Shown one piece after another: positions 22,207 through 45,975 of a stretch of DNA of 64,000 nucleotides. Location: positions 120,454 to 184,453 of the forward strand of contig CAWHCW010000018.1 of the NCBI GenBank assembly GCA_963827965.1, read 5' to 3'. Under the pieces are notes generated by a model, which searched no databases, was not told where the DNA came from, and was given only the letters and a program-made list of their open reading frames with translations. This stretch comes from an uncultured Chloroflexia bacterium (GTDB lineage: Bacteria; Chloroflexota; Limnocylindria; Limnocylindrales; CSP1-4). Made by a program: the position numbers and the translations under genes. Position 1 is the first letter of the stretch. The number at the start of each line of letters is the position of its first letter.

Positions 22207-22281
22207 TGGCGCGTGGCCTAACGGTATGGCACCTGACTCTGGATCAGGGGGTTCCAGGTTCGAATCCTGGCGCGCCAGCCA
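22207..22281 (+). tRNA. tRNA-Gln (anticodon CUG), CCA encoded
   Basis: I folded the cloverleaf by hand. The acceptor stem is TGGCGCG/CGCGCCA. The anticodon stem is CCTGA/TCAGG with loop CTCTGGA. The T arm is CCAGG-TTCGAAT-CCTGG. The discriminator is G, followed by CCA. Confidence 0.9.
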
Positions 22282-24702: not shown

Positions 24703-27196
<2,494 letters not shown>

Positions 27197-27209
27197 CGGA
27201 AATCTCCAG

Positions 27210-27789
27210 TCAGCTCTGGGCGTCGATGGGTGCCGAGGCGGATCCCGTCGATCACGACCGAGACGCCGGTGCCGCGCTGGATCGACCCCGCCCGAGTTCG
27301 GGTAGAGGAGGAAGTAGGTCGCGCCGTCGAGGAGCGTCAGTCTTGTGGGCCATCGGCTTGCGGGTCGCTGAGGACGGCGCCGGTGGTCTCGACGAACAGC
27401 TCCGGCATGGACGCCGAGTCGTGGAGGACGTGGCCCGCCTTGTCCTTGTCGACGACGGTGAAGCGAAGGTCGACCAGACCGCCCGTCGGCGGTCACCGCG
27501 ACGAGGTTGACCCGGATGCCGTACTCCTGCTCCATGTCGGCGGCGGACACGACGCGCGCCGCCGTTGCGTTGCGAGGCCGGCCGTTCGACCTCGCCAGCG
27601 GTGTAGGAGAGGGTCGCCGCCACGATGAGCGGCAGGACCAGTACGGCCGGCGATGGCCGCGATCCACGTGCGTCGGATGGAGAGGCGGCCGCGCCGGCCG
27701 CCCTCCACGTCGGCCGGGGCGTCGTCCCCGGCTTCCGGGACCGCAGCCGCGAGGCTGCGGTCCCGCTCGGTTCGATCGATGCTCGTCAT
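27210..27789 (-). pseudogene. small N-terminally anchored extracytoplasmic protein, unknown function; seven +1 frame breaks
   Basis: The ATG is at 27789 (MTSIDRTERDRS...). A TM helix (IAAIAGVLVLPLIVAA) is followed by GIRVNLVAVTADGGLVDLRFTVVDKDKAGHVLHDSASMPELFVETTGAVL, LTLLDGATYFLLYPNSGG and VSVVIDGIRLG. The frames step 0,2,1,0,2,1,0,2. The length is 580 = 3x191+7. Confidence 0.55.
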
Positions 27790-27836
27790 GGCGTCACGTT
27801 CCATTCCAGCGAAGGCCCGAGATACACATCTGTCGA

Positions 27837-30800
27837 CTACGGAAGGTCGAAGGCGTCGATGTCCAGGTTGGCGGCGGTCAGGCCCTTGGACGTGCCGTCG
27901 AAGTACACGGACCAGGTACCGCCGTTGCGGTAGACGACGTCCTCGTCCTGGACGGTGCCGAAGCCCGTCAGCGTGGTGTCGCCGCTGAACGAGAGGTAGA
28001 AGTGGGTGGCATCGACAAACACGACGCCGTCCACGTTGGCGTTGCCGCCACCCGTGCTCGGGATGCCGATGGTGGACGCGTCGACCACCCGGGTGTACGA
28101 GCTGCCGCCGTTCCATCGGTAGATGTCGGCGTCATCCGCCGTCCCGCCCGCGCCGGGCGGGAGCGTGTTGCTGTCGGTCGAGAAGTAGAGGAATCCACCG
28201 ACGACGCTGATCGCGTCGAGGTCGGTCCCGCCCACGCCGTTGACGCTGCCGTCGAAGAACAGTGACCAGGTGCCGGCGTTGTACAAGACGACGTCCTCGT
28301 CCTGGACGGTCCCGAGGACCGGCAGGGTGACGGCGCCGCTGAACGACATGTAGAAGTGGGTGGCATTGACCCGGTCGAAGCCGTCGACGTTCGCGCCGGC
28401 GGGAACCGGGTTGGCGATGGCCGTGACGTCGATCGACCTGCTGAAGGCCGATCCGCTCCAGAAGTAGATGTCGGCGTCGTCGGCCGTCCCGCCGACGCCC
28501 GGCGGGTTCGTGCTGCCGGCGGTCGAGAAGTAGAGCGGGTGTCACCGTGTAGACCTGGCCGACGAACGGCAGGCCTGTGGTCGGCAGGGCGTTGCCGGCG
28601 ATGTCCCGGATCCCCGTCGCGGAGGTGAGGTTGAGGCCCAGGGTGCCTCCGACCGGAGCCGGTCGTGGCCGTCACGGTCCGGGTGGCGCCGGTGCCCGTG
28701 ACGGAGGTGATCGATCGCCCCGGTCAGACCGCCACCGCTCACGAGGGTGAAGTTGGCGCTCGTCCCGCCGACGACGCTCTCGGAGAACGTGACGGGCAAC
28801 GAGACGCTGGCAGCGGTCGTCGGTGTGGGATCCACGCGGTTGACGCTGATGATCGCCGGGGGCGTCCTCTCGATGACGAGGGTGGTCGAGGCCGTGGTCG
28901 CCCCAGTTGCCCGCGGCGTCCTTGCCGTGGACGTAGATGGTGTGGTTGCCCATGGTGAGCAGGTTGATCGTCGTGAGCGGGATGTCGGCGTAGCCGGTCT
29001 CGGTGACGGCGTTGAAGACGCCGTCGGTGGCGACGAACGGGAAGCCCGTGCCGTCGGCGCCGACGGTGTCGATGAAGCCCTCGCCCGCGGCGATGTTGCT
29101 GCCGCCCGAGGCGGTGTCGTCGAACGGTGGCGCTGACCCGCACCGACGGGTTGCTGCTGCTCTGGCCGAGCTGCCGTTGTTGGGGTTCGGGTTGGCGGTG
29201 ACGCCCGTGGTCGCCGGGCCCGGCCTGTCGATCGTGAGGGTGATCGTGGCGGGGGAGCCCCAGTTGCCCGGCGGCGTCCTGGCTGCGGACGGAGATCGTG
29301 TGCGGCCCGCTGCCGAGCGGCGTTGACGGTGGCCGGGCGATCGTCGCGGTCAGGCTGACCGTTGGCGCGATCTGGTTGAGGGTCATGGCCGTGCCGGTGC
29401 CGTTGGCACGGCCCGCCGTCGATCAAGTACTCGGCGGCCATGACGTTGCTGTTGCCGGTCGCCGCGTCGCTGGCCGGTCGCCGGTGAGGGCGACGGCGAC
29501 GGTGCCGTTCGGCCGGGCTCGGGGTCAGGACGAGCGCGCTCGTCGTCGGGCGCCGGTCCGTGTCGATGGCGTGAAGGTCGATGGAGCGAAGGCGCCCCAG
29601 TTGCCGGTGCGCGTCGTCCTGGCCGCGGACGTAGATCGTGTGCGTGCCGCGTCCACGAGGTGCGTGTCGATCGCGCCGGCGGCGATCGTGACGCGCTTCC
29701 GAGACCTCGTCGTCGAATGCCGAGGTCGACGGCCGTCATCGCGGTCGGCGTCGCCGACGTGGAGTCGATCCGGTACTCGGCCGCGGCGATGTCGACCCGC
29801 CGGTGGCGCTGTCGTCCACCGTGGCCGTGAGCGTGTACGATCCCGGGGGTGGTCTCGGTCAGCGTGACGCCGCTCGTGATCGGTCCGACGGTGTCGCGCC
29901 GGCGGCGGTGCCCGGGCCGCGTCGATGAACGCGAGCATGCCGCCGATGCCGCTGATGCGCTGCTGTTGTTGAGCAGCCATGGCGGCGTCGTAGAGCGGCG
30001 TACTTCGTGGAGGTCGCGGTCGTCGCCGGCATCGTCACGAGGACGTCGGCCGACTGGCCCGGGGCGACGGTCTCGGCGACCATCGTCCGCGGGTACGGCA
30101 GCTCGCTGCCGTCCGCGGCGAGCACCGCCTGGTGCAGGCCCAGGACGCCGATGCGAGTGGTGCTGGATGCCGGCGTTCACGTACCGGAGGAGCAGCGTGT
30201 TCCCGGACGGTCGTCGTGATCGCCGGGGCCGCGCTCGTGTACGCCGCGCCGTTGACGAGGAAGCACTTCGGGGCGAAGGCGCGCAGGTCGAACGTCCACG
30301 GGCGTCGCGCTGGCGTTCAGCGCCGGGTCGATCTCGCTCGAGGACGACGAGCGCCTCGTCGTCGAAGGCGGTGGCCGGGTCGGCGTAGGCCTGGCCGGGC
30401 AGCCCGGCGGGCCGCACGACGAGGGCGCCGTAGAGGCCCATGGCGACCTGGTACTGCGAGCCCGGGATGATCCCGGCCTCGTAGAGGTAGGTCCCGGGGC
30501 CGCTGGCCGTGAACGTGTAGGCGTCGTGCCGCCGCCGGCGGCGACGCCGGTCAGGTCCGGGACCATCGCCTGGCCGCCGAACAGGATCGACGTCGGCTGG
30601 GGAGGTTGTTGGTCAGGTTGACGGTGACCTCGTCGCCCTGGTCGACCACGAGGACCGGGCCGGGCAGCGTCGGGCTGCCGCCCGCCGAGTCGGCGAAGCC
30701 CCACCAGGTCGTGACCGTGCGTGCCGGGCAGCGCGGGGCCGCCCGTCCGGTCTTGGCCCACAGGTTGCAGGTGACCGTGCGTGCCCGCCGTCCGACGCAG

Positions 30801-30926
30801 GCCGGACGAGGTGATCGGCCCGGCGGCCGCGGCGATCCCGGGGACGAGCAGCGCCGCGAGGAGCAGCGCCGGCCCGAGGACCAGGGAGGAGAGGAAGGTT
30901 CGCTTCATCGTACGTTCCAGTCGCAT
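27837..30926 (-). pseudogene. secreted cupredoxin (MCO-like, no copper ligands seen) fused to three Ig-like modules and a tandem-repeat C-terminus; many frame breaks
   Basis: The signal is M(RLERTM)KRTFLSSLVLGPALLLAALLVPGIAAAAG. Cupredoxin blocks are DEVTVNLTNNLPQPTSILFGG, GTYLYEAG and QVAMGLYGALVVRP. Three modules end in ...AGNWG (about 28870-29790). Two repeats of about 115 aa follow (LYFST...GGTADDADIY...VQDEDVV, 27837-28540). Confidence 0.7.
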
Positions 30927-30946
30927 CGTCGTTCCCCTACCTCTCG

Positions 30947-32333
30947 TCACGGACAGCTGTTGGGCAGGGGCGGATCGACCCGCGTGTAGGTGATCGGCCC
31001 GGTCATGTTCACGCCCCAGGACGTGAGCTGGTGGAGCGCGTGGTTGTGGGCGATGATGTAGAACTCGCCGCACTCGTTGAGGGTCTGGACGCCCGGCGGC
31101 ATCGGCTCCTGGCACGCCCAGGTACGGGCTGCCGCTGTAGAACATGCCGATGGTGAGGTTCTGCAGGTCGGGCTCGCTGGCCGGGACCGGGTTGGCGGGC
31201 GAGTAGTCCTCGTTGTCCTTCCAGTCGAACAGCACGTCCCAGGTCTGGCCCGGGCCGATGTTGACGGCGAACTTGTCGAACGACATGTCCTCGCCGCCGC
31301 CGGCCGCGAGCGGCGCGCCGTCGCGCCCGATGACCTTGCCGTTGTTGCCGTGCGGGTGGAACGGGTAGTCCACGGTCCCCACGCTCAGGTAGCGGTCGAC
31401 GGCCGGCAACGGGTTGGTCGGTCGCGTCGTACGGGTGGATCGTCGCGAGGGACCCGTACGGCTGGCTCGGGCAGCCAGCTGGCGAAGTTGTCGGCGATGC
31501 TGTCGGGGAACTGGCGGCCGTTGATCAGCCAGTAGCGCGGGTGGTAGGTGTTCATGTTGAAGGCGGCCGTCCCCTTGAGGACCTTCGCGTTCAGGTACGG
31601 GTCGATCTCCGACAGCAGGAGCATGAACTCGGTGGCCGGGTTGAACTGCGAGTCGGCCCGGTCGTAGACGTAGTCGGCGCCCATCGTCGGCCGCACGATC
31701 AGGGCGCCGAAGAGGCCCATCCGGACCTGGACCTGGGGGCTCGAGTAGAGGCTCGGCGTGCCGCTCGCCACGCTGGCCGCCGCCGCTCTCGTAGAGGTAG
31801 GTGCCGGGCTTCGAGGCGACGAAGCTGTAGGTGACGGTGCCGCCGTTCGGCTGGGCCGGCTTGGCGAGCGAGGTCAGCGTCCCGGTCCCGTCGAAGACGC
31901 GGCTGCGACGGGAGCGCCGTCCGCGAGTGACGTTCTCCTGGCCCGGGAAGATCGATCGACACGGCCGGGGCGCTCTTGGGCGACGTCGTCGTGAACGCGT
32001 TGTGGAGGATCACGGTGACCGTGTCACCCTCGTTGACGCAGAGCACGGGCCCGGGGTGCTGGAAGGGCTTGCTGCCCTCCGAGAAGCCCCACATGTAGGC
32101 GGTGGTGCCGTCGGCCAGGTTGATGTACCCGGCGCGGGTGGTCAGGTTGAAGGTCGGGTTGGTGCCGCCGGCGCCGTCCGTCGTGCAGACGACGCCGCTG
32201 CGTGTTGGAGCCCTCGGTGGCTGCCGCGGTCGGCCGGACGGCGCCGGCGGACAGCAGCACGCCGGCGGCCAGCACCGACGACACCCGCGAGCGCCAGCCC
32301 GGAGCGGGCCCGCGAGTGCGTGAATGGTCTCAT
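30947..32333 (-). pseudogene. secreted multicopper-oxidase-like protein B (His ligands only in the C-terminal domain, Cys replaced by Asn); frame breaks
   Basis: The signal is MRPFTHSRARSGLALAGVVSSVLAAGVLLSAGA. The N-terminal domain reads SIIFPG and GTYLYES where HWHG and WYHSH are expected. The C-terminal domain has YPFHPHG (31347-31361) and AHNHALHQLT (31022-31051). The stop is at 30947. Confidence 0.75.
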
Positions 32334-32359
32334 CGTCGTCACTCCACTCATCGCCGGTC

Positions 32360-33770
32360 TCACGCCGGGTCGTCCGGGTGCTGGTTGGGGTAGGCCTGGG
32401 CCGGCAGGGCGCCGGCCGGGTACACGTGCACCTCCGTCCGCTGGCCGCCGCCGTCCGGCGCCGAGCCGAGGTTGTCGCCGCGGGTGTAGGCGCGGTTGTA
32501 GAGCACGTACACGTCGGGGCCGCTGATCCGCCCGCGCTGAAGGCGGGGCGGTGAAGATGGCGTCGAAGCTCTCGCCGGCGCCGAAGGAGAGGGTGTTGGT
32601 CTCGTAGCTGGTGTCGAAGCCGGTCCCCGCCCGCGCATGTGCGTGGCGTCCCGGCCGACGACCTGCATCTTGATGCCGGTCAGGGTCATCGCCGCCTCGA
32701 TGAAGCCGAGGTTCGCGAAGCGCAGCAGGACCCGCTCGCCGGCGTTGCAGGTGACGAGCGCCGAGTTCGGCTGGTTGCCGAGGTCCGGGTCGGCCCGGCC
32801 GGAGCGACGGCAGGTCCCAGTTCGCGTCCCGGGCCGGGTAACGTTGAAGTTGCGGTCGAGGGACCGGGTCGTCGCCGTGCGGGCGATCGAGCCGTTCGGG
32901 CAGCAGCGTGTCCGGGTAGACCCGGCCGTTGAGGAGGCTGAAGTCCGCCCGGTAGTCGCTCCACTCCGGGCAGCTGGATGTGGGCGTCCGCCCAGTGGGA
33001 GTCGCCCCAGACCTCGCTGAGGAACATCGCGTACTCGCGGTCGAAGCCGGTCGAGCCGTCGCCGTCGTTGTAGGCGTACTTGCCGCTCGGGTAGAGGGCC
33101 GTGTTGCCGTCCTGGGCCGGCCGGACGAACACGAGGCCGGTCATCCCCATCTGCACGTGCTCCGTGTCCTCCACGTGGCAGTGGAACATGTAGGTGCCCG
33201 GGTCGTGCGAGATGTAGACGTAGGTGAACGTCTGGCCCTGCGGGATCGAGATCGACCCCGTCGGCTCGCCGTCGAAGAACGGGATGACGTTCTTGAAGCC
33301 GTGCCAGTGGAGCGGTGTGCTCGTCGAACAGGTCGGGCCGCTGGGCCAGGCCGACGTTGGTCAGCTGGACCCGGAAGTCCTCGCCCTCCTCTCGGCCCAG
33401 AACAGCGGGCGCCGAGTGCTGGGCCTTGTTCTTCAGGTTGAACTGGACGTCGTCGGCCAGGCCGCTCGCGTTCGCGAAGCCGAAGATGTAGGTCGTACGC
33501 GGCCGTCCGGCGCGTAGCGTGTCCGGGTGGGTCCGTCACGCCCGAGCGAGCGAGGAGAAGATCGACGGGGTCGCGCGGCAGGGAGATCCAGCCGTCCGTC
33601 CCGACGAGCTTGAGGTCCGGCGGCCGGTCGACCGCGAGGGCGCGGCCCGGCTGGAGGATCGTTCCCACCAGCCGGGGCCCGAGGCCCGCCGCGGCCGCTG
33701 CGGCCGCGGTGAGCCCTCCGTACTTGAGCAGCTGGCGCCGGCTCAGCAGCAACCTTCCGCGGTTGCTCAT
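32360..33770 (-). pseudogene. Tat-exported multicopper-oxidase-like protein A (HWHG and HCH..H..M in the first cupredoxin domain); frame breaks
   Basis: The ATG at 33770 follows GAGGGGGA. The twin-arginine signal is MSNRGRLLLSRRQLLKYGGLTAAAAAAAG. LHWHG is at 33298-33312 and MFHCHVEDTEHVQMGM at 33142-33189. The downstream domain shows MTLTG in place of an HxHxHG motif. Confidence 0.75.
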
Positions 33771-33820
33771 CTCGTTGTCCCCCTCGACGACGGTGGAGCG
33801 GGTGGCGCGCGCGCGCCGGT

Positions 33821-36800
33821 TCATCGGAACTCGTCCGCGCCCATGTCGAAGGCACCGGACGCAGGGCGGGCGGCCGGTGGGGTCGGTGGGCCTGCTGGGG
33901 AGTCGATGTCGGCAGTCGGCGCCGACAGGGTTGCCGGAGGCTGCTGGTACAGGGGCACGGCCTTGCTGACCGCCCCGGTGTTGTACGCCGGCGACGAGAT
34001 GCCGGAGAGGTGGTAGTCACCGAGGACCCTCGGCGGGAGGTCGGCCGCGACCAGGATCGCGCCGACGAAGTTCGGGTTGGTCCGCCACGGGGCGAACGTC
34101 AGCGCCGTGTCGTAGGCGACGACGACGAGCGGGTCGGCGGCGGAGTTGGTGGCCGGGCTGGTCGTGTACGGGATGCGTCCCGGCGTTCTGCTGGACGATG
34201 GAGTTCGTCGGGGCCAGCAGGATCCGGAGCCGTCGGCGACGCCGAGGTCCCAGTGGTTGATCGGCGTGGCGTCACCCGGCCGCGCCGATGCCCGATCACG
34301 GTGCCGCAGGACGCGGGTGCCGGCCCGGTTGTCCCAGAAGATGTTGTTGAACAGCAGCGGGTTGCTGAAGCAGGCGGCGACGCCCGCACGCGGCAGCGTC
34401 GCCTGGAGCAGCGCGCTGTTCGCGCCGGTCGAGAGGCCGGCCGGGGCGGGCTGGCCGTTGCTCGTCACGGCCGTGGCGGTCGTGACGTTCTTCATGATCG
34501 TGTTGTTGTAGACCCGGACGTTGGGCGCGTCGTCGAGCGCGATGCCGCCGCCCTCGTGGGTCGACACGTTGTTCACGATCATGTTGTTGTAGACGTTCAT
34601 CGGGAAGTTGCCGGCCATCAGGAACCGGATCCCGCCGCCGTCGTCGTTGGCCATGTTGGCCTGGATCAGGTTGTCGTGGATGGACGACGGCGCCCGAGCC
34701 CGGCGAGAGGATCGACGGATCGGCCGGCAGCTCGCCGGCGATCATGATCCCGCCGCCCTCGTCGTAGCGACTGGTTGTAGTAGATCCGGTTGTGGTCGAT
34801 CGAGCCGTTCGGGCTGAGGCCGTAGCTGGCTGACGCCGCCGCCGTACTCGGCCGAGAAGTTGCCGCAGATGTCGTTGCCGGTGACGACGTAGCCGTCGCT
34901 GCCGGCGAAGAGGCCGATGCCGCCGGCCAGGTTCGTGCCGCCGTTGGCGATGATCCGGTTGTTGGCGATGCGGACGTCGTCGTTCTGGTTGTCGGTGTCG
35001 GGCGCGGGCAGGTCCGGCGTGCCGATGCGGATGGTCCCGTACGCGCCGCCGTTGTTCTGGATCGACGTTGTTCGTGATCTGCAGGTTGCGGGCGTAGGCG
35101 TTGGCGAAGATCGCGCCGCCCTGGGTGATCAGGCCGGCCGGGCAGGCCGGTCGGCACGCCGCCGATCTCGTTGATGTTGCCGGGGAAGCCCATCTGGTCG
35201 CCGCCGCGGAGGTCGAAGCCGTCGATCGAGGCGCGGTCGTCGGCGTTGAACGTCGTCGGGAACGGCCGTCGCCGCTCGGCGGTGCGAAGGCGTGGTGTCG
35301 TCGGCACGTAGATCGAGATGACCGCGCCGTCGTAGATCGTCTGGTTGCCGGCCCAGTTCAGGGTCGCCGATCCTGCGCGTACCAGTCGGTCGCCACCGGG
35401 CTGTCGCCGCCGAAGGCGCCGCCGTCGATGATCGAGCCCGCGCACGGAGCCGTCGGGGCTGCCCGGGCCGACGCCCTGCAGCTTCACCTGCTGGAGATGA
35501 TCAGGTTCTCGTAGTAGGCGCCGCGCGGGTTTGACGCGGGTCGCCGGTCGGGGTTGTTCGGGTAGACCACCACCAGGGCGCCCCTGCTGGAGTTGCCGCT
35601 GGACGCCGAGACGAAGCTGGCCGCTGCGTCGAGCGCCCGCTGGATCGCGTGGTCGGCCGTCACGGGCAGCGTGTTGGCCGGGGCGAACAGCGTCCTGCCC
35701 GGGCCCGACCTCGAAGATCGGCGGGTTGTAGCGCTGCCGCCCGATCCTGTGGAAGGTGAGGCCGTTGATCGTGGTCCTGCCGTTGCCGGCCGTGACCCGG
35801 AGCTGGTGCGCCCACGAAGCCGCGCGGGCACCGTGAAGTTGGTGGTCGTGATCTGGGTGTCGGTCCACCCGCCGGTCGCGATCGGCAGGTTGGTGAGCTC
35901 CCGTTCGAGGCGGTCGAGCGTGAGGTTCCCGGTGCCCTCGCAGTGCGCCGAATCCCGTAGCCCTTGACGCACCGGGTGATCGCCGGCCCCGGTCGCGTAC
36001 GGCCGCGACACCGCGTACAGCTCCGGGCGTCCGGGTCGCCGGTGCGGCGGCCGGGTCGTTGACCGGGCACGACGACCGCGATCTGGGTCTGGCGCGCCCG
36101 GCAGCTGGATCGATGACGCCGACCTGGGTCGGGGCCGTGTCGGCCGGGACGATGAGGCCCGGGAAGGCCTCGAACTCGGCCGCGATCGTCCGGTACTGCG
36201 GGTTGTAGTTCGGGTTGAGCCGGCCCGGGACGCCCGGGTCGTTGCCGACGAACCGGTAGAGGTTGGCGCAGACGCCGGACGGCGTCGGGCAGTTGATCCG
36301 GTTCGTCGACGGCAGGAGCACGTCGAAGAGGCCGTTGTAGTCGGTCTCGACGGTCGTGACCAGGCGGTTGGCGAAGTCGTAGATGCCGACCGGGGCGAAC
36401 GGCATGCCGGCCTTCTCGCCGAAGAGCAGGGACTTCGGGTCGGTCGAGAAGTTGAGGTCGTCGACGTTGTAGGCGAAGAAGCGGCCCGGGCAGCGGCACG
36501 TCGGTGAAGACGTTGAACATCGGGACGATCGACTTGCCGTTCTGGAGCGTCGACGAGCTTCGTGTCGCAGAGCGGCCGCGGCCGGCCCTCGTAGGGCGAG
36601 CCGCCGATGTCGACGAAGGTCGGGTTCTCGGTCGGCGTGGAGGCCGGGACGGTGAGGTCCGGCCGCCGTTGCCGGACGGGTCGGCGACGGTCGCGCGTAG
36701 CCGTCGTGCCGACGTCGGCGACGTCCACCGTGTGGAGCGGACCGGCGCAGGCGGGCGGCGGGACCTGCGGCACGAACTGTCGCCGTTCCCGATGTTGATG

Positions 36801-39397
36801 TCCTCTTCGCGGGTGACCTTGTAGATCGGCTGGCCCGACGTGTCCACCTTGCCGGCGAGGTCGATGTGGACGAGGTAGTCGTCCGCCGGGCAGGCGCGCG
36901 TCGAAGCGTGCCGCCGACGCAGACTCGGGCGCGGACGGGTCGGTGGCGTCGAGGGTGCCGTCGAAGCAGCGCGTCGCCGAAGCCGTAGTTGCCGTCGACG
37001 GCGGCGCCGAAGTTGGCGTCCGGGGTCGCCCTGGTCGGTCGGCGTACGGCCCGAACTGGACGCCCATCAGCGGGCCTTCGAGGCAGCCCTTGCCCGCGCC
37101 CGACCGGCAGGACCTGCTGGTCGGCGGGGTTGACGAGCGGGTTGCCGTCGACGTCGCGGGCGACGCAGTCCGTGCGGGCCGCTCCCACGTCTCGGAGACG
37201 TAGGTGTTGAGGAGCTTGCCCTGCGCGTAGGACCCGTCGGGTGCCAGCTCGTAGTCGCCGCGCGCGTCGCACGGCGTCGCCGGCGTTCGTGCCGCAGGGG
37301 ACCGGCGCGTAGAGCTCGACGGTGAGCCCGGAGACGCCCGGCTGCCAGTCCTCGGCGGCCGCGTACTGCGGGTCGAGCTCGTTGCGGGTCGTGTCGTAGC
37401 TGATCGAGCCGACGATGCCGCCGTTCTGCGGGTCGACCCCGTTGGTGCCGGTCGCGTCGTAGGCGTGGACGCCCCAGTCGAGCGTGCCCGACGAGGCCGA
37501 TGATCGGCAGGACGCTGACGTCGACGCCGGCGCCGATGACCGTCGTCGGCGTCGGCTGGTTGTCGGCCTGGTAGGTGATGCCGGTCGTGTAGTAGCGGTC
37601 GTCGTACGCCTCGAGGACGAGCCACTCCGTGAGCGGGTAGGCGTTCTCCATCGACGTAGTAGCCGGACTGGTCGGTGCTGACCGCGGTCGCGCCGCGGTC
37701 CATCAGCGAGTTCTCGCGCTTGCGCAGGGTGAGGCCGAAGTTCGGGCACGCCCGGCTCGCCGGCGTCCCGCTTGCCGTTGCGGTTCGTGTCGTTGAAGAC
37801 GTAGCCGTCGATCTTGGTGAACCAGCCGGCGAGCGGCAGGACGCCCATGTCGACGGTCTCGCCGTTGGCGACGGTGACCTGGAGGAGGTCGAGGATGTAG
37901 TTCTGCGGCGTCGTCCCAGTAGGTCAGCGTGTAGGTGCCGTCGGGGACGTTGGGGATCGTCGAAGGTGCCGTCCGCGTCGCCGCGGCCGAACTAGACGGC
38001 CGTGTCGCCGCGGTCGAGGTCGGAGAGCGCGATCCACGGCTTGTCGATCGGATGGTCGATCTTGGCGCCGCAGAGGCCGCCCCAGATGGTGCCGGGCAGG
38101 CAGGCCGCCCTTCTGGCGGGACGTAGATGTCCATGGCGTCGACGACGCCCTTGATCGTGCCGGTCCCGCCGGCCGCGAACGCTGGTGGCGTCGGGCGGTC
38201 GTTCCAGTAGGCTGGTCGTCGGGCCCGGGACGTAGCCGAAGATCGTGGCCGGGAACGGCTCGCCGGCGACCACGAACTCGGTGTCGAGGCCGGTCGCGCC
38301 CTCCATCACCCAGGCGTCCCAGTCGTGGTTGCCCTCGAGGGTGGTCGTCTGGACCCAGCTCTGGCCGGTCGGCGGGACCATCGACAGGGCGTAGCGGTTC
38401 GGGCCGAGGTTCGGGATCGTGAGGACGCCGCGGGCCAGCGCCGGGTCGAGCGGCGCCTACAGCATGACGTACAGTGCATCGTCGTCGCCGGCCCGTTGAC
38501 GACGCCGTCCATGTTGACGTCGCCGGTCAGGCACTTGCCGCCCAGGTGGGTGACGATCGGCTCGCCTGGTCGGCGATCGAGCGACCGGTCGTCGTCGCCC
38601 GCGATCCTGGACGCCGTCGTCGTTCGCGTCGTCGAACTCGTACTTCGTGCACAGCGGGTTGCCGAAGACGTCGGTGTTGACCTGGCCGAGGTAGTCGGTG
38701 ATCTTGCCGGACAAGCCGGGAGGCCGTCCTCGCCGGGGTCGTACTGGCCGTTGGCCGCGGTGACGTCGGCGAAGACCTGCGGCCTTGATCGTGGCCGTCG
38801 GCAGCGGGAGCGGCTGCAGCGGCACCGTCGACCAGGCCGGGGTCCGCGCGGGACGCGTGAACGGGGTGCCGTCGAGCTTGAAGCCGTCGGCGAGCACGGA
38901 GATCGAGGTAGCGGCCGGTCCGGGCAGGGTGATGCCGGTCGTGCCGTTGAGGTCCGTCTCGTCGCCCTGGGCGACGACCGGGGCGGAGCTCCGCAGGCCC
39001 GGCGATCGAGGTCCACGTGCAGGAATCCGGGTAGCGCCGGGTTCGGCGTGGTGTGGGCCGCGTCCAGCCACGGCGAGCAGTCCGACCCCGGGTTCGCGTT
39101 GCGCGTGACGTGGTCGCCGGTGTTGTCCTCGTTGATCATCCACTTGTAGGTGGTGACGGCGTCGCCCATCGTCACCGGCCCGATGTCGGCGTCGGCTCGG
39201 TGCGGGCCGCGATGACGCGGAGCGTGATCGTGTTCGTCGGCGCCGCCGGGGCGGCCTGCGGCGCCGCGGGCGGCGGGCGCCACGGGGGCGGCCGCGACGG
39301 GCAGGGCCAGCTGGGTGCTGACCAGGAGCGCGCTGGCGACCCACATCCCAAGGAAGCGGAGGGTCCTGCGCGAGCGACCGGATCGCGAGTGTTCCAT
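33821..39397 (-). pseudogene. giant (~1850 aa) secreted protein: SdrD B-like/Cna-B-type region plus C-terminal right-handed parallel beta-helix repeats; many frame breaks
   Basis: The ATG at 39397 follows AGGAG. The signal is MEHSRSGRSRRTLRFLGMWVASALLVSTQLALPVAAA. GYVFNDTNRNGKRDAGEPG lies at about 37770-37830. Beta-helix repeats occur from about 33900-35600 (NNMIVNNVSTHEGGGIALDDAPNVRVYNNTIMKN, NNRIIANGGTNLAGGIG). The C-terminus is FDMGADEFR. Conserved-looking sequence can be followed across frames with no gap. Confidence 0.7.
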
Positions 39398-39465
39398 CAC
39401 CTGGTGCTCCTCACTCCTTTTCGAACGTCGATTGCCGGCCGCGGAGGCGCGGTTGTCCTGGGTGC

Positions 39466-40105
39466 TCATCGATCGCCTCCGGCGTGCGTGGATCCCGCGG
39501 TCGCGGGGGATGCGGAAGGCCCGGCCGGCGCGGCGTGCGTCGACCCGGGCGCCTGGACTGGTACCTGGTCTTCCTGCGCCGCCCGCCAGGCGCCGCGCCA
39601 CGGCACCCCCGCGAGCAGCGAGAGAGGGGCGAGGACGAGGAGCGCCGCCTCCAGCGCGTAGACGGCGTCAATGGCGAGGTCCTCGAGGAGGCTGACGCCC
39701 GCCTCCTCCTCGGCGCCGAAGAGGAACCCGTGGAGCTGGTTGCCGGGGATGCTGAGGGCGGCGAACAGGACCGCGGCAAGGAACGCCCCAGAGCGCCACG
39801 GTGGTCAGCGATGCACGTCCCCCCGGCTGGGCGGGACGGAGCCTGGCGACGAGGAGCGCGGCGACGACGATCGCGATGGCGGCGAACGGCACGGCCAGGG
39901 AGGCGTCGCGCAGCCAGTGGATGACCGGCGGCGGCTCGTTGTGCTCGTGGAGGTCCGCATGGACGAGCTGCAACACGGCGGTGGGAACCGCCGCGAGCAG
40001 CCAGGCGTATACGACCACCCGGCCCGCCAGGAGGCGGAATGCGGCGCCGGCCGCGCCGTCCCCCGGTTCCGGCGCGCGGGCGCGGGCATCGACCTGGTCC
40101 ATCAT
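39466..40105 (-). pseudogene. His-rich polytopic membrane protein, unknown function; one +1 frame break
   Basis: The product starts MMDQVD... TM segments are VVVYAWLLAAVPTAVLQLV, LAVPFAAIAIVVAALLVA, LAAVLFAALSI and VYALEAALLVLAPLSLLAG. The loop between TM1 and TM2 is HADLHEHNEPPPVIHW. The length is 640 = 3x213+1, and the break is at ggcgtt-c-cttgcc (about 39783). Confidence 0.6.
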
Positions 40106-40113
40106 CGTCGCGG

Positions 40114-42103
40114 TCACTTGCCACCTCCCTGCCCGGCCCGGGGCGGGCCGCTGGCATCGGGTCCTGGGGTTGGATTGGCCTGGGTCGGCGGCCCGCCCAT
40201 GCCGGTCGGCGCGATCGTCGGCGCCGCGCCGGTCGGCGTCGGGACCAGTGGAGCGGCGGCCACGACGACCGTGACCGTGGTCGGGCGGCCAAGCACCGCC
40301 GGCTGGCCGGCGCCCGTGGCGCGCTCGAGGCTGAGCAGGAGGAGGTAGGTCCCGGGTTCCGTGGGGACCGGTCCGGAGAGCCAGGTCGTCTGCGCGGCCG
40401 CGGCCGGAACGGAGAGCTCGCGGGTCATCGGCGCGGCCGGGCCGGTGCCCGCGAGGGCGACCCAGCGACCCGTCAGCCGGACGGTCGAACAGGCGGCGGC
40501 GCCGTCCGGGCCGTCGGTTCGCGTTTCCGACGCGCAGATGCCCCAGGCGGTCGGCTCTCCGTTCGTGACCACGACCTGGACCGCTGCCAGCGTCCCGGCC
40601 GTGACCGACATGGCTGGCGGCGCCTCCAGCCACGCGGCGCCCGGGCCGCCGACGTGGACGACGACACCCGGGATGGAGGCCTGGACCGCGTACGGGAGAG
40701 CGACGCCGTCACGGTCGTGGAGCGTGACCTCGAGGCGGTACCGGCCGCTCGTCGCCGGCAGGGTCACGGCTCCCGCGATGCTGCCATCGGCGACCGTCGC
40801 GGGGACGACGTCGACGAGCGACGCGGCCGACTCGCGGGCAACAAGGGTCGGATCGTCCGCGCCCGGCGCGGGGCTGGCGGCGGGACCGGGGCTGGCCGCG
40901 GGATCCCGGCCGGCCGCAACGTCGGGGCTGGCCGCGGGATCCTGGCCGGTCGCGGGGTCTGCGCCCTGCGTCGGACCGGCCGGGGGGCTCGCCTCGTCGA
41001 GCGGGATCCAGCGGGTGCCCAGTCGGTATGCAACCCCGAGCTGGACCCCGGCAGGCACCTCCACGGGCACCCGCAGCGGGACCGTGGAGGCGGCCAGCAG
41101 CATCCCCGCGAGCGCCGGCGTGCCCGGTCGCGACCCGAGATCGAACGGGTCGGGCGCGGCGGACGGCTGTGGCGGCAGGACGATCTCCCAGCCGCCCGGC
41201 GGTGTGACCGCCACGGGCGGCGGGCCGGCCGGGTCGGCCGCGCGTGCCGCCGCTCCGCGGGCGACCTCGTCGGCGCGCAGATCCGCCCGCGCCACGAGCG
41301 ACCGGTAGAAGCCGCCCTGGCGGTCGGTCGGATCCAGCAGCGCGGTGAGCCCCGCGGTTCGCACGCTCGGGAACGCCAGCACGTGATCGTGGAAGCTGGG
41401 GGCCGCCCGCCAGATCTGCTCGAGGGTGCCCCTGCCCGCGAGGATCGCCCGCACGTAGTGCGCCGGCCCCAGGAACGCATCGGCCAGGACGGCCGCGGCA
41501 CCCGCCGCCAGCCACCCGGCGGCGAAGTTGTCGACGCGCTGCGTCGCGACGTCCAGCGTCCCCTCGGGCAATCCTGGCTCGGAATTGCCGGACGCGTAGC
41601 AGAGATGACTCAGGACCACGATGGCGTTCGGGGCCAGGCGCACCGCGCGGGCGAGGTAGGACTCGCCGAAGTACTGGTGGGCCACGTTGTCCACGCCGGC
41701 GACCGGGTTCAGGCCCAGGCCGTTCTGCGTCCTCGGGTTCAGCGCCCGGCTGTACCGGCTGGGCCAGCCGTTGCCGTGGCCCAGGTAGACGACGATGGAC
41801 GCCCCACGCAGGGCATCCTCCGTCGCGGCCCACGTGGCGTTCGGCGAGTAGACCGTGACGACGTCGTCGGTGAACCGGCGCGCCTCGGCGGCGGCCTTCT
41901 CGGCGTCGGCGCGGTAGCTCGACGTCAGCCTTCCGACCGGGCCGACGATGATGGCGACGCGCGGCGCGGCGGCCTCGGCGCCCGCAGCGCCGAAGCGGCG
42001 CCGCGGCCACGACGAGGATCGGGGCCATGAGCGCGACCGAAAGCAGCCGGAGGCCCAGGCGCAGGAGCGCGCCGGTCACCCCCGGTCGGGCGGCGCCATG
42101 CAC
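40114..42103 (-). pseudogene. secreted protein of unknown function with GHG...C motif pair and Ala/Pro-rich linker; at least one frame break; start tentative
   Basis: ORF 40114..41694 is extended upstream in the same frame (VVYLGHGNGWPS...VVLSHLCYASGNSEPG). A signal-like N-terminus (GALLRLGLRLLSVALMAPILVVAAAP) lies one frame over, from the GTG at 42103. The linker contains DPAASP repeats at about 40850-40960. Confidence 0.55.
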
Positions 42104-42420: not shown

Positions 42421-43086
42421 CTAGCGGTCGGCCGGGATGAGACCCGAGCGGACCGCGTAGCGCACGAGGCCGGCGACATCGTGGATGTCGAGCCGGCCCA
42501 TCAGCTGGGCGCGATGGGTCTCGATCGTCTTGATGCTCAGGTTCAGGCTGGCCGCCATCGCCTGGTTCGATTGTCCCTCGGCGATCAGCTGGAGGACCTC
42601 GCGCTGCCGAGGCGTCAGGCCGTCCGACGTGTCGTCGCCGTCCGCGGCCCGGCGGAGGTAGTCCGACACGACGTAGCGCGACACGGCCGGGCTGAGATAG
42701 GAGCCGCCCTGGGCCACCGCCCTGACGGCAAGCTCGAGCTCCAGCGGGCTCGAATCCTTGAGCAGGTAGCCGACCGCGCCCGCCCGGAGCGCCTGCCGCA
42801 CGTACTCCTCGTTGTCGTGCATGGACAGGACGATGACGCGGACGAGCGGGTGCTCGACGCGGAGCTGGGCGATGACCTGGATCCCGTTGAGGCCGGGCAT
42901 CGTGATGTCCAGGACAGCCACGTCGGGGACGTGCTCCGCGATCACCCTGAGCGCCTCGCGACCGTCGGCGGCCTCCGCGACGACCTGGACGCCCGGGATC
43001 GCCGCCAGGAGCGCGCGGAAGCCCGCCCGCACCAGCGCGTGATCCTCGGCGAGGACGACGCGGATCGTCGGCGGCGGGTAGGTCAC
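42421..43086 (-). CDS. NarL/LuxR-family response regulator
   Basis: The GTG at 43086 is in frame, giving 221 aa. The receiver has DVAVLDITMPGLNG. The HTH reads LTPRQREVLQLIAEGQSNQAMAASLNLSIKTIETHR. Confidence 0.9.
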   Translation of the reverse strand: MTYPPPTIRVVLAEDHALVRAGFRALLAAIPGVQVVAEAADGREALRVIAEHVPDVAVLDITMPGLNGIQVIAQLRVEHPLVRVIVLSMHDNEEYVRQALRAGAVGYLLKDSSPLELELAVRAVAQGGSYLSPAVSRYVVSDYLRRAADGDDTSDGLTPRQREVLQLIAEGQSNQAMAASLNLSIKTIETHRAQLMGRLDIHDVAGLVRYAVRSGLIPADR

Positions 43087-44028
43087 CGGACGACGTGCCG
43101 TGGCCGGCCGATCGCGAAGCGGGCGATCACCTTCGTCCCCTCGCCGTTGCCCGAACGCACCGCGACGTCTCCGCCCACCAGCGACGCGCGCTCGGCCATC
43201 CCGGCAATCCCGATGCAGGTGGTCGAGCTGCAGGCCGTCGGATCGAAGCCTGCGCCGTCGTCGCGAAACGTCGAGGACGAGCTCGCCCGACCGCGGTCGG
43301 AACCGCACGTCGACCGATACCCGGCGGGCCCCGGCATGGCGGACGACGTTCGTGATCGCCTCCTGGGCAATGCGGAAGCAGGTCGTCTCGATCTCGGCCG
43401 GGAGCCGGGCCTTGCCGAGCGCGACCCGGCAGGAGATGACCATGTCGGAACGGAGGTCGACCCGGCGGCAGAGCGCCCGCAGGGCGGCGCCGAGCCCGAG
43501 GTCGTCGAGCACGGCCGGCCGCAGGTCGAAGGCCGCGGTTCGCACCTGGTGGATCGCGGCGTCGACCGCGGCGATGCTGTCGTTGATGTCGGCCCCGCTC
43601 GCCCCGGTCCGTGCGTCCACGCGATCGAGCCACAGGAGGTTGAGCCGAACGGCCGTCAGGGCCTGGCCGACGACGTCGTGGAGATCTCGCGAGATCCGTG
43701 CCCGCTCCGCCTCCTGGGCAGCGACGAGGCGCGCCCGGATGGCGCGATCGATTGCTGGGACGTGCGTCGATCCCGGGGCCGACCGAGCCGTCGTCCGCCG
43801 GCCACGGGACGCCGTCGGGCGGTCTCGAGACGATCTCGACCGGGACGAACGAAGCCGCCCCAGGCTGGGGCACGCGTGCCGCCATCTGTCCACCCCCCAC
43901 CCCGCTTGTGAAGGGAGCATCCCGGGGCCACCCGGCCTGTCGACCCGCCACGGGTGCGGGGCGACCTCCCCTCTGTCGGCGATCCCCATCCCCGACACGT
44001 CGGCGCAAGAATGAGGCGGGCTGGACAT
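43083..44028 (-). pseudogene. NarL-partner (HisKA_3-type) histidine kinase without evident TM sensor; one frame break; start tentative
   Basis: The H-box is ERARISRDLHDVVGQALTAV and the N-box is EAITNVVRHAGA. After a break near 43280 the sequence reads RDDGAGFDP and GIAGMAERASLVGG (ORF 43083..43370). No hydrophobic helices appear upstream of the H-box. Confidence 0.75.
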
Positions 44029-44136
44029 CGCATCTATAGTCGTCTTCGACCATTCGGATGGTCCGTTGCCGGTCACGACGTGGTGGCGTTGATGGCTGGT
44101 GCCGATTCGCGAGCAGGAACGGGCAAGGGGGGCAGC

Positions 44137-45268
44137 ATGTCCCGGATGGGGGAGCTCGACGCCGGGGACGCGCCGCGGGGCGGCTGGCTGATCGCGCGCC
44201 CGCTGCCCCTCCTGATTGCGCTCGATGCGACGGGCATCGCGCTCGCCGCCGCCTCGCTTGCCCAGCTGGGCGATCCGGACGTCCTGCTCCACGTGGTCTG
44301 GATCGTCCTCGCGGTCGAGGCGTTCGCGTTCGGCCTGCGGATCGCGGCCCTGCGGATCCGTCGCCGCGTCCGTCTTCGTGGTCCTCTACGCCGTTGCCGC
44401 CAACGGGGACGCGAGCCCCGCCGCCGCCGCCCTGACCGACCTGGACCTCGAGGAATGGCCGCTCATGGCCGTGATCGCCGTCCTCGTCGCGATCATGGCC
44501 GACCGCGTGATGCTCACGGGACGCCGCTACGCGGCGCTCTACCGGGCAGCCAGCGATCGACTGCTGACGGCCCAGGAGGACGAGCGGAAGCGCCTGGCCG
44601 CAGACCTGCACGACGGCGTCGGGCAGACGATGACCGCCCTCGCGCTCACTCTCGACGCGGCCGAGGCCGCCCTGGCGAACCCCGACGCGCCCGACGCGGC
44701 CGGCCGCGATGCCGTCCGCCGGGCGCGCGAGATGGCGGGCCTGGCCCTCGAGGACGTCCGTGGCGTCGCGTTCCGGCTGCGCCCCGCCCGACTGCGGGAG
44801 ACCGGACTGGTGGCCGCCCTCCGCGAGCTCGCCGCCTCGGCCGGCATGGCCGTGGAGTTCTCGGCCGACGCCTCCCTCCTGCGGCCGGATCTGCTGGACC
44901 CCGCCAGCGAGGTGGACACCTACCGGATCGTCCAGGAGGCGCTCGGCAACGCCACGCGCCACGGGCAGCCGCACCTGGTCCAGATCTCGGTCCGGCGGCT
45001 CGATCGGCAGCTGCGAATCGAGGTCGTCGACGATGGGGTGGGATTCGACGCACGCGGCGTCGACGGACGCGGGCTCGGGCTCGCGAGCATGCGCGATCGC
45101 GCCCTGGTCGTCCGTGGAGCGCTCCACGTCCGCTCGCGACCCGGGACGGGGACCGTCGTGCGCCTGGACGTGCCGTTGGCGGACGACGCCCTGCGGAGCC
45201 TGACGGACGGAGCCGCCGGCCGCGCCGCGAGCGCAGCGCCTGCCCAGGCTGAAGCGCCGGTCCGCTGA
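44137..45268 (+). pseudogene. membrane-bound HisKA_3-type histidine kinase; one +1 frame break near 44360
   Basis: The product starts MSRMGELD... with TM helices (LIARPLPLLIALDATGIALAAASL, VVWIVLAVEAFAFGL, VFVVLYAVAA, LMAVIAVLVAIMA). The H-box is ERKRLAADLHDGVGQ, followed by EALGNATRHG, DDGVGF and GLASMRDRA. The length is 1132 = 3x377+1. Confidence 0.8.
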
Positions 45269-45975
45269 TGGAGGACCGCCACGGGCCCCGCTCGCCGGGA
45301 GCGCTTCGGGAGCACGCCGGGGCGGCGACCCAGCTCCATCCGCCGCTGCGCGTTGCCCTCGTGGACGACCACAACCTGGTCAGGGAGGGGCTGCGCCACG
45401 TCCTCGAGCTCCAGCCCGGGATCCTGGTGGTCGGCGAGGCGGCCGATCGCGCCGAGGCATTCGACCTGCTCACCAGCGGCACCCCGGACATCGTGCTCCT
45501 GGACGTCACCTACCCCGACGATGACGGCCTCGTCCTGCTTCGCGAGCTCACGGCCAGGCGGCCCGGCATCCGCGTGCTGGTGCTGACCATGCACCGCGAC
45601 GCCGAGACCGTGCGCCAGGCCCTCCGCGCCGGGGCTGCCGGCTACGTGGTGAAGGGCGCCCACACGAGCGAGCTCGTGGAGGCCGTCTGGGCCGTCGCCC
45701 GCGGCGAGCGGTATCTCCACAGCAGCGTCGCCGGGGCGATCATCGACGATTCGTTGCGCTGGATGGACGTCGCGAGCCCGCTCAGCCCGCGAGAGCGCGA
45801 GATCCTGGGCCATATCGCGGCGGGCGCATCGGCCGCCGACGTCGGGCGCGCGCTCGGGATCAGCCCCCACACCGTCCGGCGCCATGTCGCGAACCTCTCG
45901 GGGAAGCTCGGCCTTCGCGGACCGAAGGCCCTGACCCGGTACGCCGTCGAGCAGGGCCTGGTCCGCGGAGGCTGA
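45268..45975 (+). CDS. NarL/LuxR-family response regulator
   Basis: The ORF is an intact 235 aa and its start overlaps the kinase stop (TGATG). The receiver has DIVLLDVTYPDDDG. The HTH reads LSPREREILGHIAAGASAADVGRALGISPHTVRRH. Confidence 0.9.
   Translation: MEDRHGPRSPGALREHAGAATQLHPPLRVALVDDHNLVREGLRHVLELQPGILVVGEAADRAEAFDLLTSGTPDIVLLDVTYPDDDGLVLLRELTARRPGIRVLVLTMHRDAETVRQALRAGAAGYVVKGAHTSELVEAVWAVARGERYLHSSVAGAIIDDSLRWMDVASPLSPREREILGHIAAGASAADVGRALGISPHTVRRHVANLSGKLGLRGPKALTRYAVEQGLVRGG

Follow-up and report, generated by a model that had tools for sequence, protein, structure and literature searches.

Reciprocal copper-ligand half-sites in adjacent two-domain cupredoxin genes: a candidate heteromeric multicopper oxidase

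Can the active site of a multicopper oxidase be shared out between the products of separate genes? The question is raised by a 64,000-nucleotide stretch of DNA from an uncultured Chloroflexia bacterium (GenBank assembly GCA_963827965.1, contig CAWHCW010000018.1, positions 120,454 to 184,453; hereafter the window, meaning the whole stretch that was analysed), the minus strand of which carries three adjacent genes for cupredoxin proteins, here designated A, B, and C. The trinuclear copper cluster of multicopper oxidases needs four HxH pairs, contributed by two cupredoxin domains across an interface. A preliminary description of the window had noted that neither A nor B possesses four such pairs alone, while A and B together do, and this core observation holds after repair of the reading frames. 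The reading favoured here, with a probability of roughly 0.6, is that the genes encode a hetero-oligomeric oxidase with its trinuclear cluster at an interface between A and B.

Copper-ligand motifs in A, B, and C

A hand-stitched version of protein A, when used as a query, retrieves a large family of intact proteins of 440–520 residues. One member, P0005, comes from an uncultured Chloroflexia genome, in which its gene lies on a contig of 2.08 Mb. The locus around it (L001), which is orthologous and intact, served as the reference for frame repair; both A and B were rebuilt by frameshift-aware alignment to the L001 proteins. Domain 1 of the repaired A contains HTLHWHG and HCHVEDTEHVQMGM, the latter corresponding to H-C-H-(x5)-H-(x4)-M, and domain 2 is without ligands, with AAMTLTGIKMQVVGRD and YVLYNRAYTRG in place of the domain-2 His pairs. 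The A motifs first reported from the raw letters (LHWHG at 33298–33312 and MFHCHVEDTEHVQMGM at 33142–33189) are confirmed, as is the 42-residue spacing from the first His of HWH to the first His of HCH (126 nucleotides), and the reported absence of HxH pairs from the downstream domain survives repair (MTLTG, LYNRAY). Four further His residues of A are invariant or nearly so, namely H98, H136, H293, and H298 in L001 numbering, and these lie within HPD, AQHSAP, and, at the start of domain 2, SHWADAHIQLPEW.

Repaired B has lost the other half of the set. Its domain 1 bears SIIFPGQ and TYLYESG at the former His-pair positions and has no ligands, and its two HxH pairs lie in domain 2. The replacement of both N-terminal pairs (given earlier as SIIFPG and GTYLYES) and the HNH at 31040–31048 were correctly described; for the other domain-2 motif, the motif itself stands, and only its label, YPFHPHG, was two residues too long, as the coordinates 31347–31361 correspond to FHPHG. 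The type-1 ligand set is found in A only and is absent from both B and C.

The ligand pattern was followed across orthologues by scanning a collection containing one genome per species with the A profile, which gave 288 relatives, of which 80 loci were examined. These span Chloroflexota, Actinomycetota (Cryobacterium, Cellulomonas, Nocardioides, Intrasporangium, Xylanimonas, and Actinotalea), Myxococcota, Pseudomonadota (Methylobacter tundripaludum SV96, Chromatiaceae, Ideonella, and Burkholderiales), and Acidobacteriota. In A, the type-1 ligands H174, C220, H227, and M232 and the pair residues H177, H179, H219, and H221 are all present in 80/80 orthologues, and the twin-arginine signal is invariant. 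In B, H323 is retained in 76/78 orthologues, H325 in 77/78, H426 in 73/78, and H428 in 74/78, the missing residues mostly reflecting truncated tblastn matches in frameshifted assemblies; four Cys residues are also invariant. No conserved set of copper ligands is found among C orthologues. Since the ligand columns are invariant or near-invariant, the complementary pattern is not due to chance.

A and B are paralogous to each other and to residues 1–345 of C, the three aligning colinearly over two domains each (hhalign probabilities of 99.8% for A-B, 99.7% for C-A, and 100% for C-B), and the ligand positions have been kept or lost at identical alignment columns, with reciprocal losses in A and B. 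At the four ligand motifs, the A profile reads HTLHWHG, HCH..H..M, AAMTLAG, and LYNRTY; that of B reads VSLIFPG, YESG..QVRMG, PFHPHGN, and ISHNHAL; and that of C reads TSILFGG, YEAG..QVSMG, HSLGVLG, and LYDAAL. The eight His of the four HxH motifs are therefore supplied only by A and B together, two motifs coming from each and none from C. All three are separate genes, each with its own signal peptide, and all three match Pfam multicopper-oxidase profiles (Cu-oxidase, Cu-oxidase_2, and Cu-oxidase_3) above the gathering threshold of ~21 bits: A matches Cu-oxidase_3 with 42 bits and Cu-oxidase_2 with 40 bits, B matches Cu-oxidase_3 with 27 bits, and C matches Cu-oxidase_3 with 53 bits and Cu-oxidase with 25 bits.

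The closest sequence match to A in the Protein Data Bank is 3G5W, a type-C two-domain oxidase from Nitrosomonas europaea. Its domain 1 (HTIHWHG...HCHVNVNEHVTMRGM) aligns to domain 1 of A, including HCH...H...M, and its domain 2 has HAIHTHG and HDHV at the positions at which A has lost its His residues, these being, in the A-B alignment, the columns occupied by FHPHG and HNH in B. An AlphaFold2 model of an A orthologue (mean predicted local distance difference test score, pLDDT, of 76.6; predicted template-modelling score, pTM, of 0.79) aligns to whole chains of trimeric two-domain enzymes, with template-modelling (TM) scores of 0.64 for 3G5W and 0.64–0.66 for 2ZWN, both normalised to the target, and of 0.65–0.70 for the Geobacillus nitrite reductase NirK. 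This model and the A-B profile alignment establish A and B as two-domain proteins, and the three-domain framework within which the preliminary description had placed them is abandoned in favour of a comparison with trimeric oxidases of two domains. The type-1 site was also described as relocated; a type-1 site in domain 1 is, however, what defines the known type-C class (3G5W).

A proposed A·B·C assembly and its alternatives

Linkage of the genes is strict in both directions. With the denominators being those loci that have enough flanking sequence to be informative, B follows A in 78/78 genome loci, and C accompanies them in 73/73, a giant secreted protein in 69/69, a small membrane protein in 63/63, and a subtilisin-like protease (subtilase) in 61/63. 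In the reverse test, in which B was the bait on metagenome contigs, A lies directly upstream in 58/58 and C downstream in 52/52. The gene order in every informative locus is giant protein, A, B, C, small membrane protein, and subtilase, and the genes are closely packed: the giant gene and A overlap at an ATGA, and A, B, and C are spaced only ~20–26 nucleotides apart. Homologues of A or B occurring without the partner, which had been put forward as a test of the idea, are absent from the informative loci.

The division of ligands between A and B recurs in three more distant clades of ~30%–40% identity. In a sister cluster of ~40% identity (L082), A′ has the domain-1 set, B′ has FHPH and HSH, and C′ has none; a gene with a CopC domain lies nearby. 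In a clade of ~30% identity (L164), A″ has HTVHFHG and HCH, B″ has FHEHG and HSH, and the cupredoxin pair of C″ forms the N terminus of a protein of 3238 residues. In the third clade (L165/L166), an A-like gene is followed by a single gene fusing B-like and C-like two-domain units (P0287 and P0286), downstream of which lie a small-membrane-protein homologue and then a CopC-CopD gene. The C part of these fusions has no second signal peptide, and the linkers of ~170 and ~600 residues contain a small conserved Arg/Lys-rich domain. As two independent representatives share the same architecture, the fusion looks real, and the absence of a second signal peptide argues that B and C belong to one complex (the Rosetta-stone argument). 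The preliminary description had envisaged an obligate A-B unit: the complementarity of A and B stands, but the unit is likely to be A·B·C rather than A·B because C is linked as tightly as B and is fused to B in one clade.

Four candidate fusions of A to B were also considered and rejected. P0241 is a frameshift/deletion run-through lacking B domain 2. P0243 (L083 10001–12103, 700 residues) joins A domain 1 and a partial domain 2 to B domain 1. It runs out in frameshifted sequence before reaching the HNH of B, and a deletion in the assembly is a more probable origin for it than a genuine fusion. P0318 and P0413 were also found to be artefacts.

The arrangement that would best accommodate these features is a ring of A, B, and C in a 1:1:1 ratio, made obligate by reciprocal loss of copper sites and holding one type-1 copper and one trinuclear cluster; the odds on this fuller model are about even. 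The ancestor would have been a type-C two-domain oxidase, a class that is normally homotrimeric, with every one of the three subunit interfaces housing a trinuclear cluster. Following duplication, A would have kept the domain-1 set (type-1 His, Cys, His, and Met together with two HxH pairs) and B the domain-2 set of two HxH pairs, while C would have lost all. Given that no chain retains both half-sites, a homotrimer of A, B, or C could build no cluster; domain 1 of A with domain 2 of B is the only combination that offers eight His, and the cluster is placed at that interface for this reason. The three proteins would assemble outside the cytoplasmic membrane as a six-domain ring of cyclic order B-A-C. 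At the B-domain-2/A-domain-1 interface, the single trinuclear cluster would be wired by the Cys-His link to the type-1 copper of A, and the A/C and C/B interfaces would be free of copper. Within such a ring, each interface brings together either two intact domains (A1/B2) or two degenerate ones (A2/C1 and C2/B1), which is the signature that a fixed cyclic arrangement of three different subunits should leave. The type-1 site of A would oxidise the substrate, with O2 being reduced to water at the A/B interface, and the immunoglobulin (Ig)-like tail of C might act as an anchor.

Several observations weigh against this reading. In the AlphaFold2 model of B, domain 1 is good and domain 2 has a pLDDT mostly below 50, so that its TM scores of 0.53–0.63 to the trimeric enzymes matched by A, with 0.54–0.55 in the comparison with type-C oxidases, are informative hardly beyond domain 1; likewise, a search of Protein Data Bank sequences with the B profile recognised domain 1 and not domain 2. 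The B protein of L018, a Chromatiaceae metagenome-assembled genome, has FPFPPHG for FPFHPHG, the first His of the motif having become Pro. This is the sole full-length B orthologue seen without one of the cluster His residues, and the change is either a sequencing error or a real variant. The extra conserved His residues of A (H98, H136, H293, and H298) fall outside the compared ligand motifs and are not explained by the model; a second-sphere role or a further metal site could account for them. A concatenated A+B query yielded no natural fusion of A to B, and the fusions that do exist run in the order B-C, whereas the proposed ring puts A between B domain 2 and C domain 1; they are compatible with it only because of their long linkers. 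The export signals also differ, with A having a twin-arginine translocation (Tat) signal and B and C having general secretory (Sec)-type signals, which would mean that assembly and copper loading take place after export by two routes. Finally, many insertions and deletions (indels) break the window copy of the A/B locus.

The best-surviving alternative, though an unlikely one, restricts the catalytic unit to A and B, as a heterodimer or AnBn, and makes C an independent surface protein that shares the operon and whose cupredoxin pair serves binding or scaffolding elsewhere. The confinement of ligands to A and B fits this, as do the very long and unrelated tail of C and the weaker conservation of its N-terminal pair, which is 45%–55% identical to L001 across phyla compared with 55%–65% for A and B. 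Two-domain relatives, however, assemble into closed rings of six domains, which four domains are too few to complete (PMC13151041; established knowledge). Furthermore, both domains of C align colinearly with those of A and B, and C is always present (73/73 and 52/52) and in one clade is fused to B without its own signal peptide.

Slightly less probable again is that no copper cluster is shared: A would be a stand-alone type-1 electron-transfer or partial-site protein, B would bind copper or another metal by itself (e.g., for sequestration or delivery), and their complementarity would be a relic of descent. The difference in export route and the poor structure prediction for B domain 2 are consistent with this, and the CopC/CopCD neighbours of the sister clusters would suit copper handling too. 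Against it, half-sites of four surface-facing His have no known function alone, yet these do not vary across five phyla or in clades with as little as ~30% identity, and the losses are exactly reciprocal at homologous columns. In addition, A has the H-C-H triad by which electrons pass from a type-1 copper to a trinuclear cluster, and this would be purposeless if no cluster existed.

Relation to known cupredoxin enzymes

Evolution of the multicopper oxidases is usually told as a passage from a single cupredoxin domain to a two-domain homotrimer and onwards to single chains of three and six domains. In ceruloplasmin, six domains form a ring in which only one of the interfaces between domains holds a trinuclear cluster. 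For the two-domain oxidases, a 2026 paper describes trimers in which two protomers contribute to each cluster—four His from domain 1 and four from domain 2 of the neighbouring protomer—and classes the enzymes by the location of the type-1 site alone, with type-C oxidases having it in the N-terminal domain (PMC13151041).

The proteins described here have two cupredoxin domains per chain and, in A, type-1 ligands in the N-terminal domain, as do type-C oxidases. Like 3G5W and the metagenomic mgLAC (2ZWN), they show HTxHWHG and HCH(x5)H(x4–5)M in domain 1 and Cys-free HxH pairs at the domain-2 positions. In type-C enzymes, however, every protomer carries both half-sites and the trimer has three clusters; here, the halves are on two gene products, a third has none, and not one of A, B, and C carries both, so that a six-domain ring could hold no more than one cluster. 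A and B are also ~100–150 residues longer, with insertions.

NirK, which is among the best fold matches, is similarly a trimer of two-domain cupredoxin chains; domain 1 binds its type-1 copper, and its catalytic copper lies between subunits. It differs in that the latter is a mononuclear type-2 site with three His, two from domain 1 and one from domain 2 of the neighbouring chain, whereas A and B offer eight His in four HxH motifs, as is typical of a trinuclear cluster. An identity as NirK was considered and rejected: with the NCBIfam equivalog TIGR02376 (Cu_nitrite_red), for which the cut-off is 296, A reaches 24.5 bits and B 23.7 bits, and the combination of HxH and HCH is not the NirK pattern. 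NCBIfam contains no specific model for any gene of the cluster.

If the ring model is right, the closest likeness would be to ceruloplasmin, hephaestin, and bacterial MnxG, which are six-domain pseudo-threefold rings with one trinuclear cluster and degenerate other interfaces. These enzymes hold all six cupredoxin domains in one polypeptide, have the cluster-adjacent type-1 copper in the last (even) domain, and possess further type-1 sites, whereas the present system comprises three polypeptides, with its type-1 site in a first (odd-numbered) domain. Factor VIIIa (A1, A2, and A3-C1-C2) resembles the proposal in being a heterotrimer of paralogous two-cupredoxin units, one of which has surface-binding C-terminal domains; unlike it, factor VIIIa is eukaryotic, is made by proteolysis of one chain, and has neither a trinuclear cluster nor oxidase activity. 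A two-domain oxidase with non-identical chains in its crystal has been described in Nmar_1354 (PDB 9CCK), an ααα′ 'heterotrimer'; its chains nonetheless come from one gene, with an extra C-terminal cupredoxin domain on two of the three protomers, and each has both half-sites (PMC11761707).

In open-access papers and bioRxiv, no description of a heteromeric, heterotrimeric, or split multicopper oxidase or laccase was found, although such absence is not proof; a search for '2dMCO' heterotrimers in the same literature returned only the Nmar_1354 case (PMC11761707), and nothing relevant was found there on the gene content of the cluster or on the Methylobacter locus. An obligate heterotrimer in which one interface is active and the other two are dead would, if true, be a new quaternary solution and would clearly exemplify how subunits specialise through the reciprocal loss of sites. 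It would also represent a living intermediate between homotrimeric two-domain and single-chain six-domain oxidases, and so a plausible stepping stone to ceruloplasmin-like enzymes. The family comprises over 3400 sequence clusters for A and over 2600 for B, which are now annotated merely as 'multicopper oxidase domain-containing protein'; A or B expressed alone as a 'laccase' would probably be inactive. The oxidase would form part of a conserved cell-surface machine in at least five phyla, together with the giant beta-helix protein, the membrane protein, the subtilase, and, in sister clades, CopCD, and these conserved partners point towards an unexplored extracellular copper-dependent process. 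Cultured members of the family are available in Cellulomonas, Cryobacterium, Nocardioides, Intrasporangium, Xylanimonas, and Methylobacter tundripaludum.

State of the window sequence and neighbouring genes

The caveat that the frames of the window needed repair was well founded. G+C content is ~72% across the window, and third-position G+C shows that the coding frame on the minus strand changes every 100–300 nucleotides between ~25.6 and 40.2 kb. Rebuilding A (33824–32363) required 16 frame corrections and one stop read through (33536), giving a protein with 418/518 residues identical to L001; B (32333–30950) required 10 corrections, all +1 insertions, and is identical at 419/459, for a total of ~26 frame disruptions. 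The surroundings of L001 are colinear with the window over an alignment of 14.9 kb, with 83.8% identity and 246 gaps. Single bases account for 165 of these, and in 123 of the 165, the extra base is in the window. Indel density against L001 is ~1 per 60–100 nucleotides across 25600–40300 and is similar in all genes of the cluster. None of the indels checked within A and B lies in a homopolymer run, and long open reading frames of high third-position G+C cover the whole window unevenly (0.0 in the 4-kb bin at 60–64 kb and 0.21 in that at 12–16 kb). The ratio of non-synonymous to synonymous substitution (dN/dS) between the window and L001 is 0.30 for A and 0.23 for B, which indicates purifying selection. 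Taken together, the single-base insertions outside homopolymers, the like density in all genes, the patchy reading frames, and the purifying selection make the frameshifts look like uncorrected long-read-type sequencing errors in an unpolished assembly rather than gene decay.

That the window genes are decaying pseudogenes, with the ligand pattern being part of the decay, is accordingly very improbable: the 26 disruptions and in-frame stop in A and B and the 246 gaps would suit it, but intact orthologues show the identical pattern, and for the family as a whole, the pseudogene reading is rejected on the strength of those intact orthologues and of purifying selection. As a separate observation, synonymous divergence (dS) between the window and L001 is 0.27 for A and 0.20 for B, and far higher, at 0.63, for the subtilase of the same cluster.

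Table 1. Features of the cluster in the window and of two related fusion genes. Positions refer to the window unless a locus is named; aa, amino acids; nt, nucleotides.
Feature	Position	Strand	Description	Basis or remark
Small His-rich membrane protein	39469..40117	minus	Upstream of the cluster; 215-aa gene in L001	tblastn, 73–74% identity, two frames
Giant secreted protein	33821..39397	minus	SdrD_B-like, TIG, right-handed beta-helix; 1851 aa in L001 (4449–10004)	tblastn pieces, three frames, 39397–33824
Protein A	32360..33824	minus	Tat signal, two cupredoxin domains; type-1 site and half of the putative trinuclear-cluster His in domain 1	16 frame corrections
A domain 1, H-T-L-H-W-H-G	33298..33322	minus	Type-1 His and first HxH pair	1-nt insertion at 33313 splits the frame
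A domain 1, MFHCHVEDTEHVQMGM	33142..33189	minus	H-C-H pair, type-1 Cys and His, axial Met	Translation
Protein B	30947..32333	minus	Sec-type signal, two cupredoxin domains; ligands in domain 2 only, no Cys there	10 frame corrections, all +1
B domain 2, FHPHG	31347..31361	minus	First HxH pair	Within PFHPHGNN, 31341–31364
B domain 2, HNH	31040..31048	minus	Second HxH pair; Asn where type-1 domains have Cys	Within IAHNHALH, 31031–31054
Protein C	27837..30926	minus	Signal peptide, two ligand-free cupredoxin domains, Ig-like repeats, C-terminal repeat module; 1034 aa in L001	Proposed ring-closing, anchoring third subunit
Small membrane-anchored protein	27235..27789	minus	Core cluster member; 191 aa in L001 (16130–16705)	tblastn
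Subtilisin-like serine protease	25644..27196, at least	minus	Peptidase_S8 with I9 propeptide	tblastn; Pfam Peptidase_S8, 1.4e-42 on the L001 orthologue
B-C fusion P0287	L165 1961–4615		Natural single-gene fusion	
B-C fusion P0286	L166 5246–8716		Natural single-gene fusion	

The start of A may lie at 33824, where the sequence begins MNRRARATRS... as in L001, rather than at 33770; the Tat motif SRRQLLK comes after both candidates. The ATGA overlap of the giant gene's stop with the start of A suggests translational coupling. The L001 orthologue of the giant protein matches the Pfam families Beta_helix, TIG, and SdrD_B, and the window copy is heavily frameshifted; the protein could serve as a scaffold or substrate, and the subtilase might have a role in maturation. 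Gene calls P0263 and P0265 merge the C terminus of the giant protein with an A-like protein, as P0250 probably does (going by its Pfam listing alone).

A protein of the 191-residue type (~165–190 residues) also occurs in the clade with the B-C fusion (L165 4622–5116), directly before the CopC-CopD gene. A role in copper handling or in assembly is possible for this protein, and the CopC/CopCD proteins of the sister clusters could supply copper. Neither the 191-residue nor the 215-residue protein has a significant match in Pfam or NCBIfam.

At 42424–45972 of the window, HisKA_3-type histidine kinases and GerE/LuxR-type response regulators adjoin the cluster, as they do in L001, and OmpR-type two-component genes lie directly upstream of the clusters in L082 and L164; these are possible dedicated regulators. 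Scans for transfer RNA (tRNA) genes and Rfam families found nothing in the window relevant to the oxidase cluster, the sole RNA gene being a tRNA-Gln (CTG) at 22207–22281 on the plus strand.

The C-terminal repeat module of C (residues ~800–1034 of the L001 protein; ~455–689 of the tail query) is present in one to three extra copies in many Actinomycetota loci. These sit between the giant gene and A (L029 8535–9998, L031 8505–9968, and L060 8374–9813), and seem to be either genes in their own right or additions to the giant protein, and another copy often follows the subtilase.

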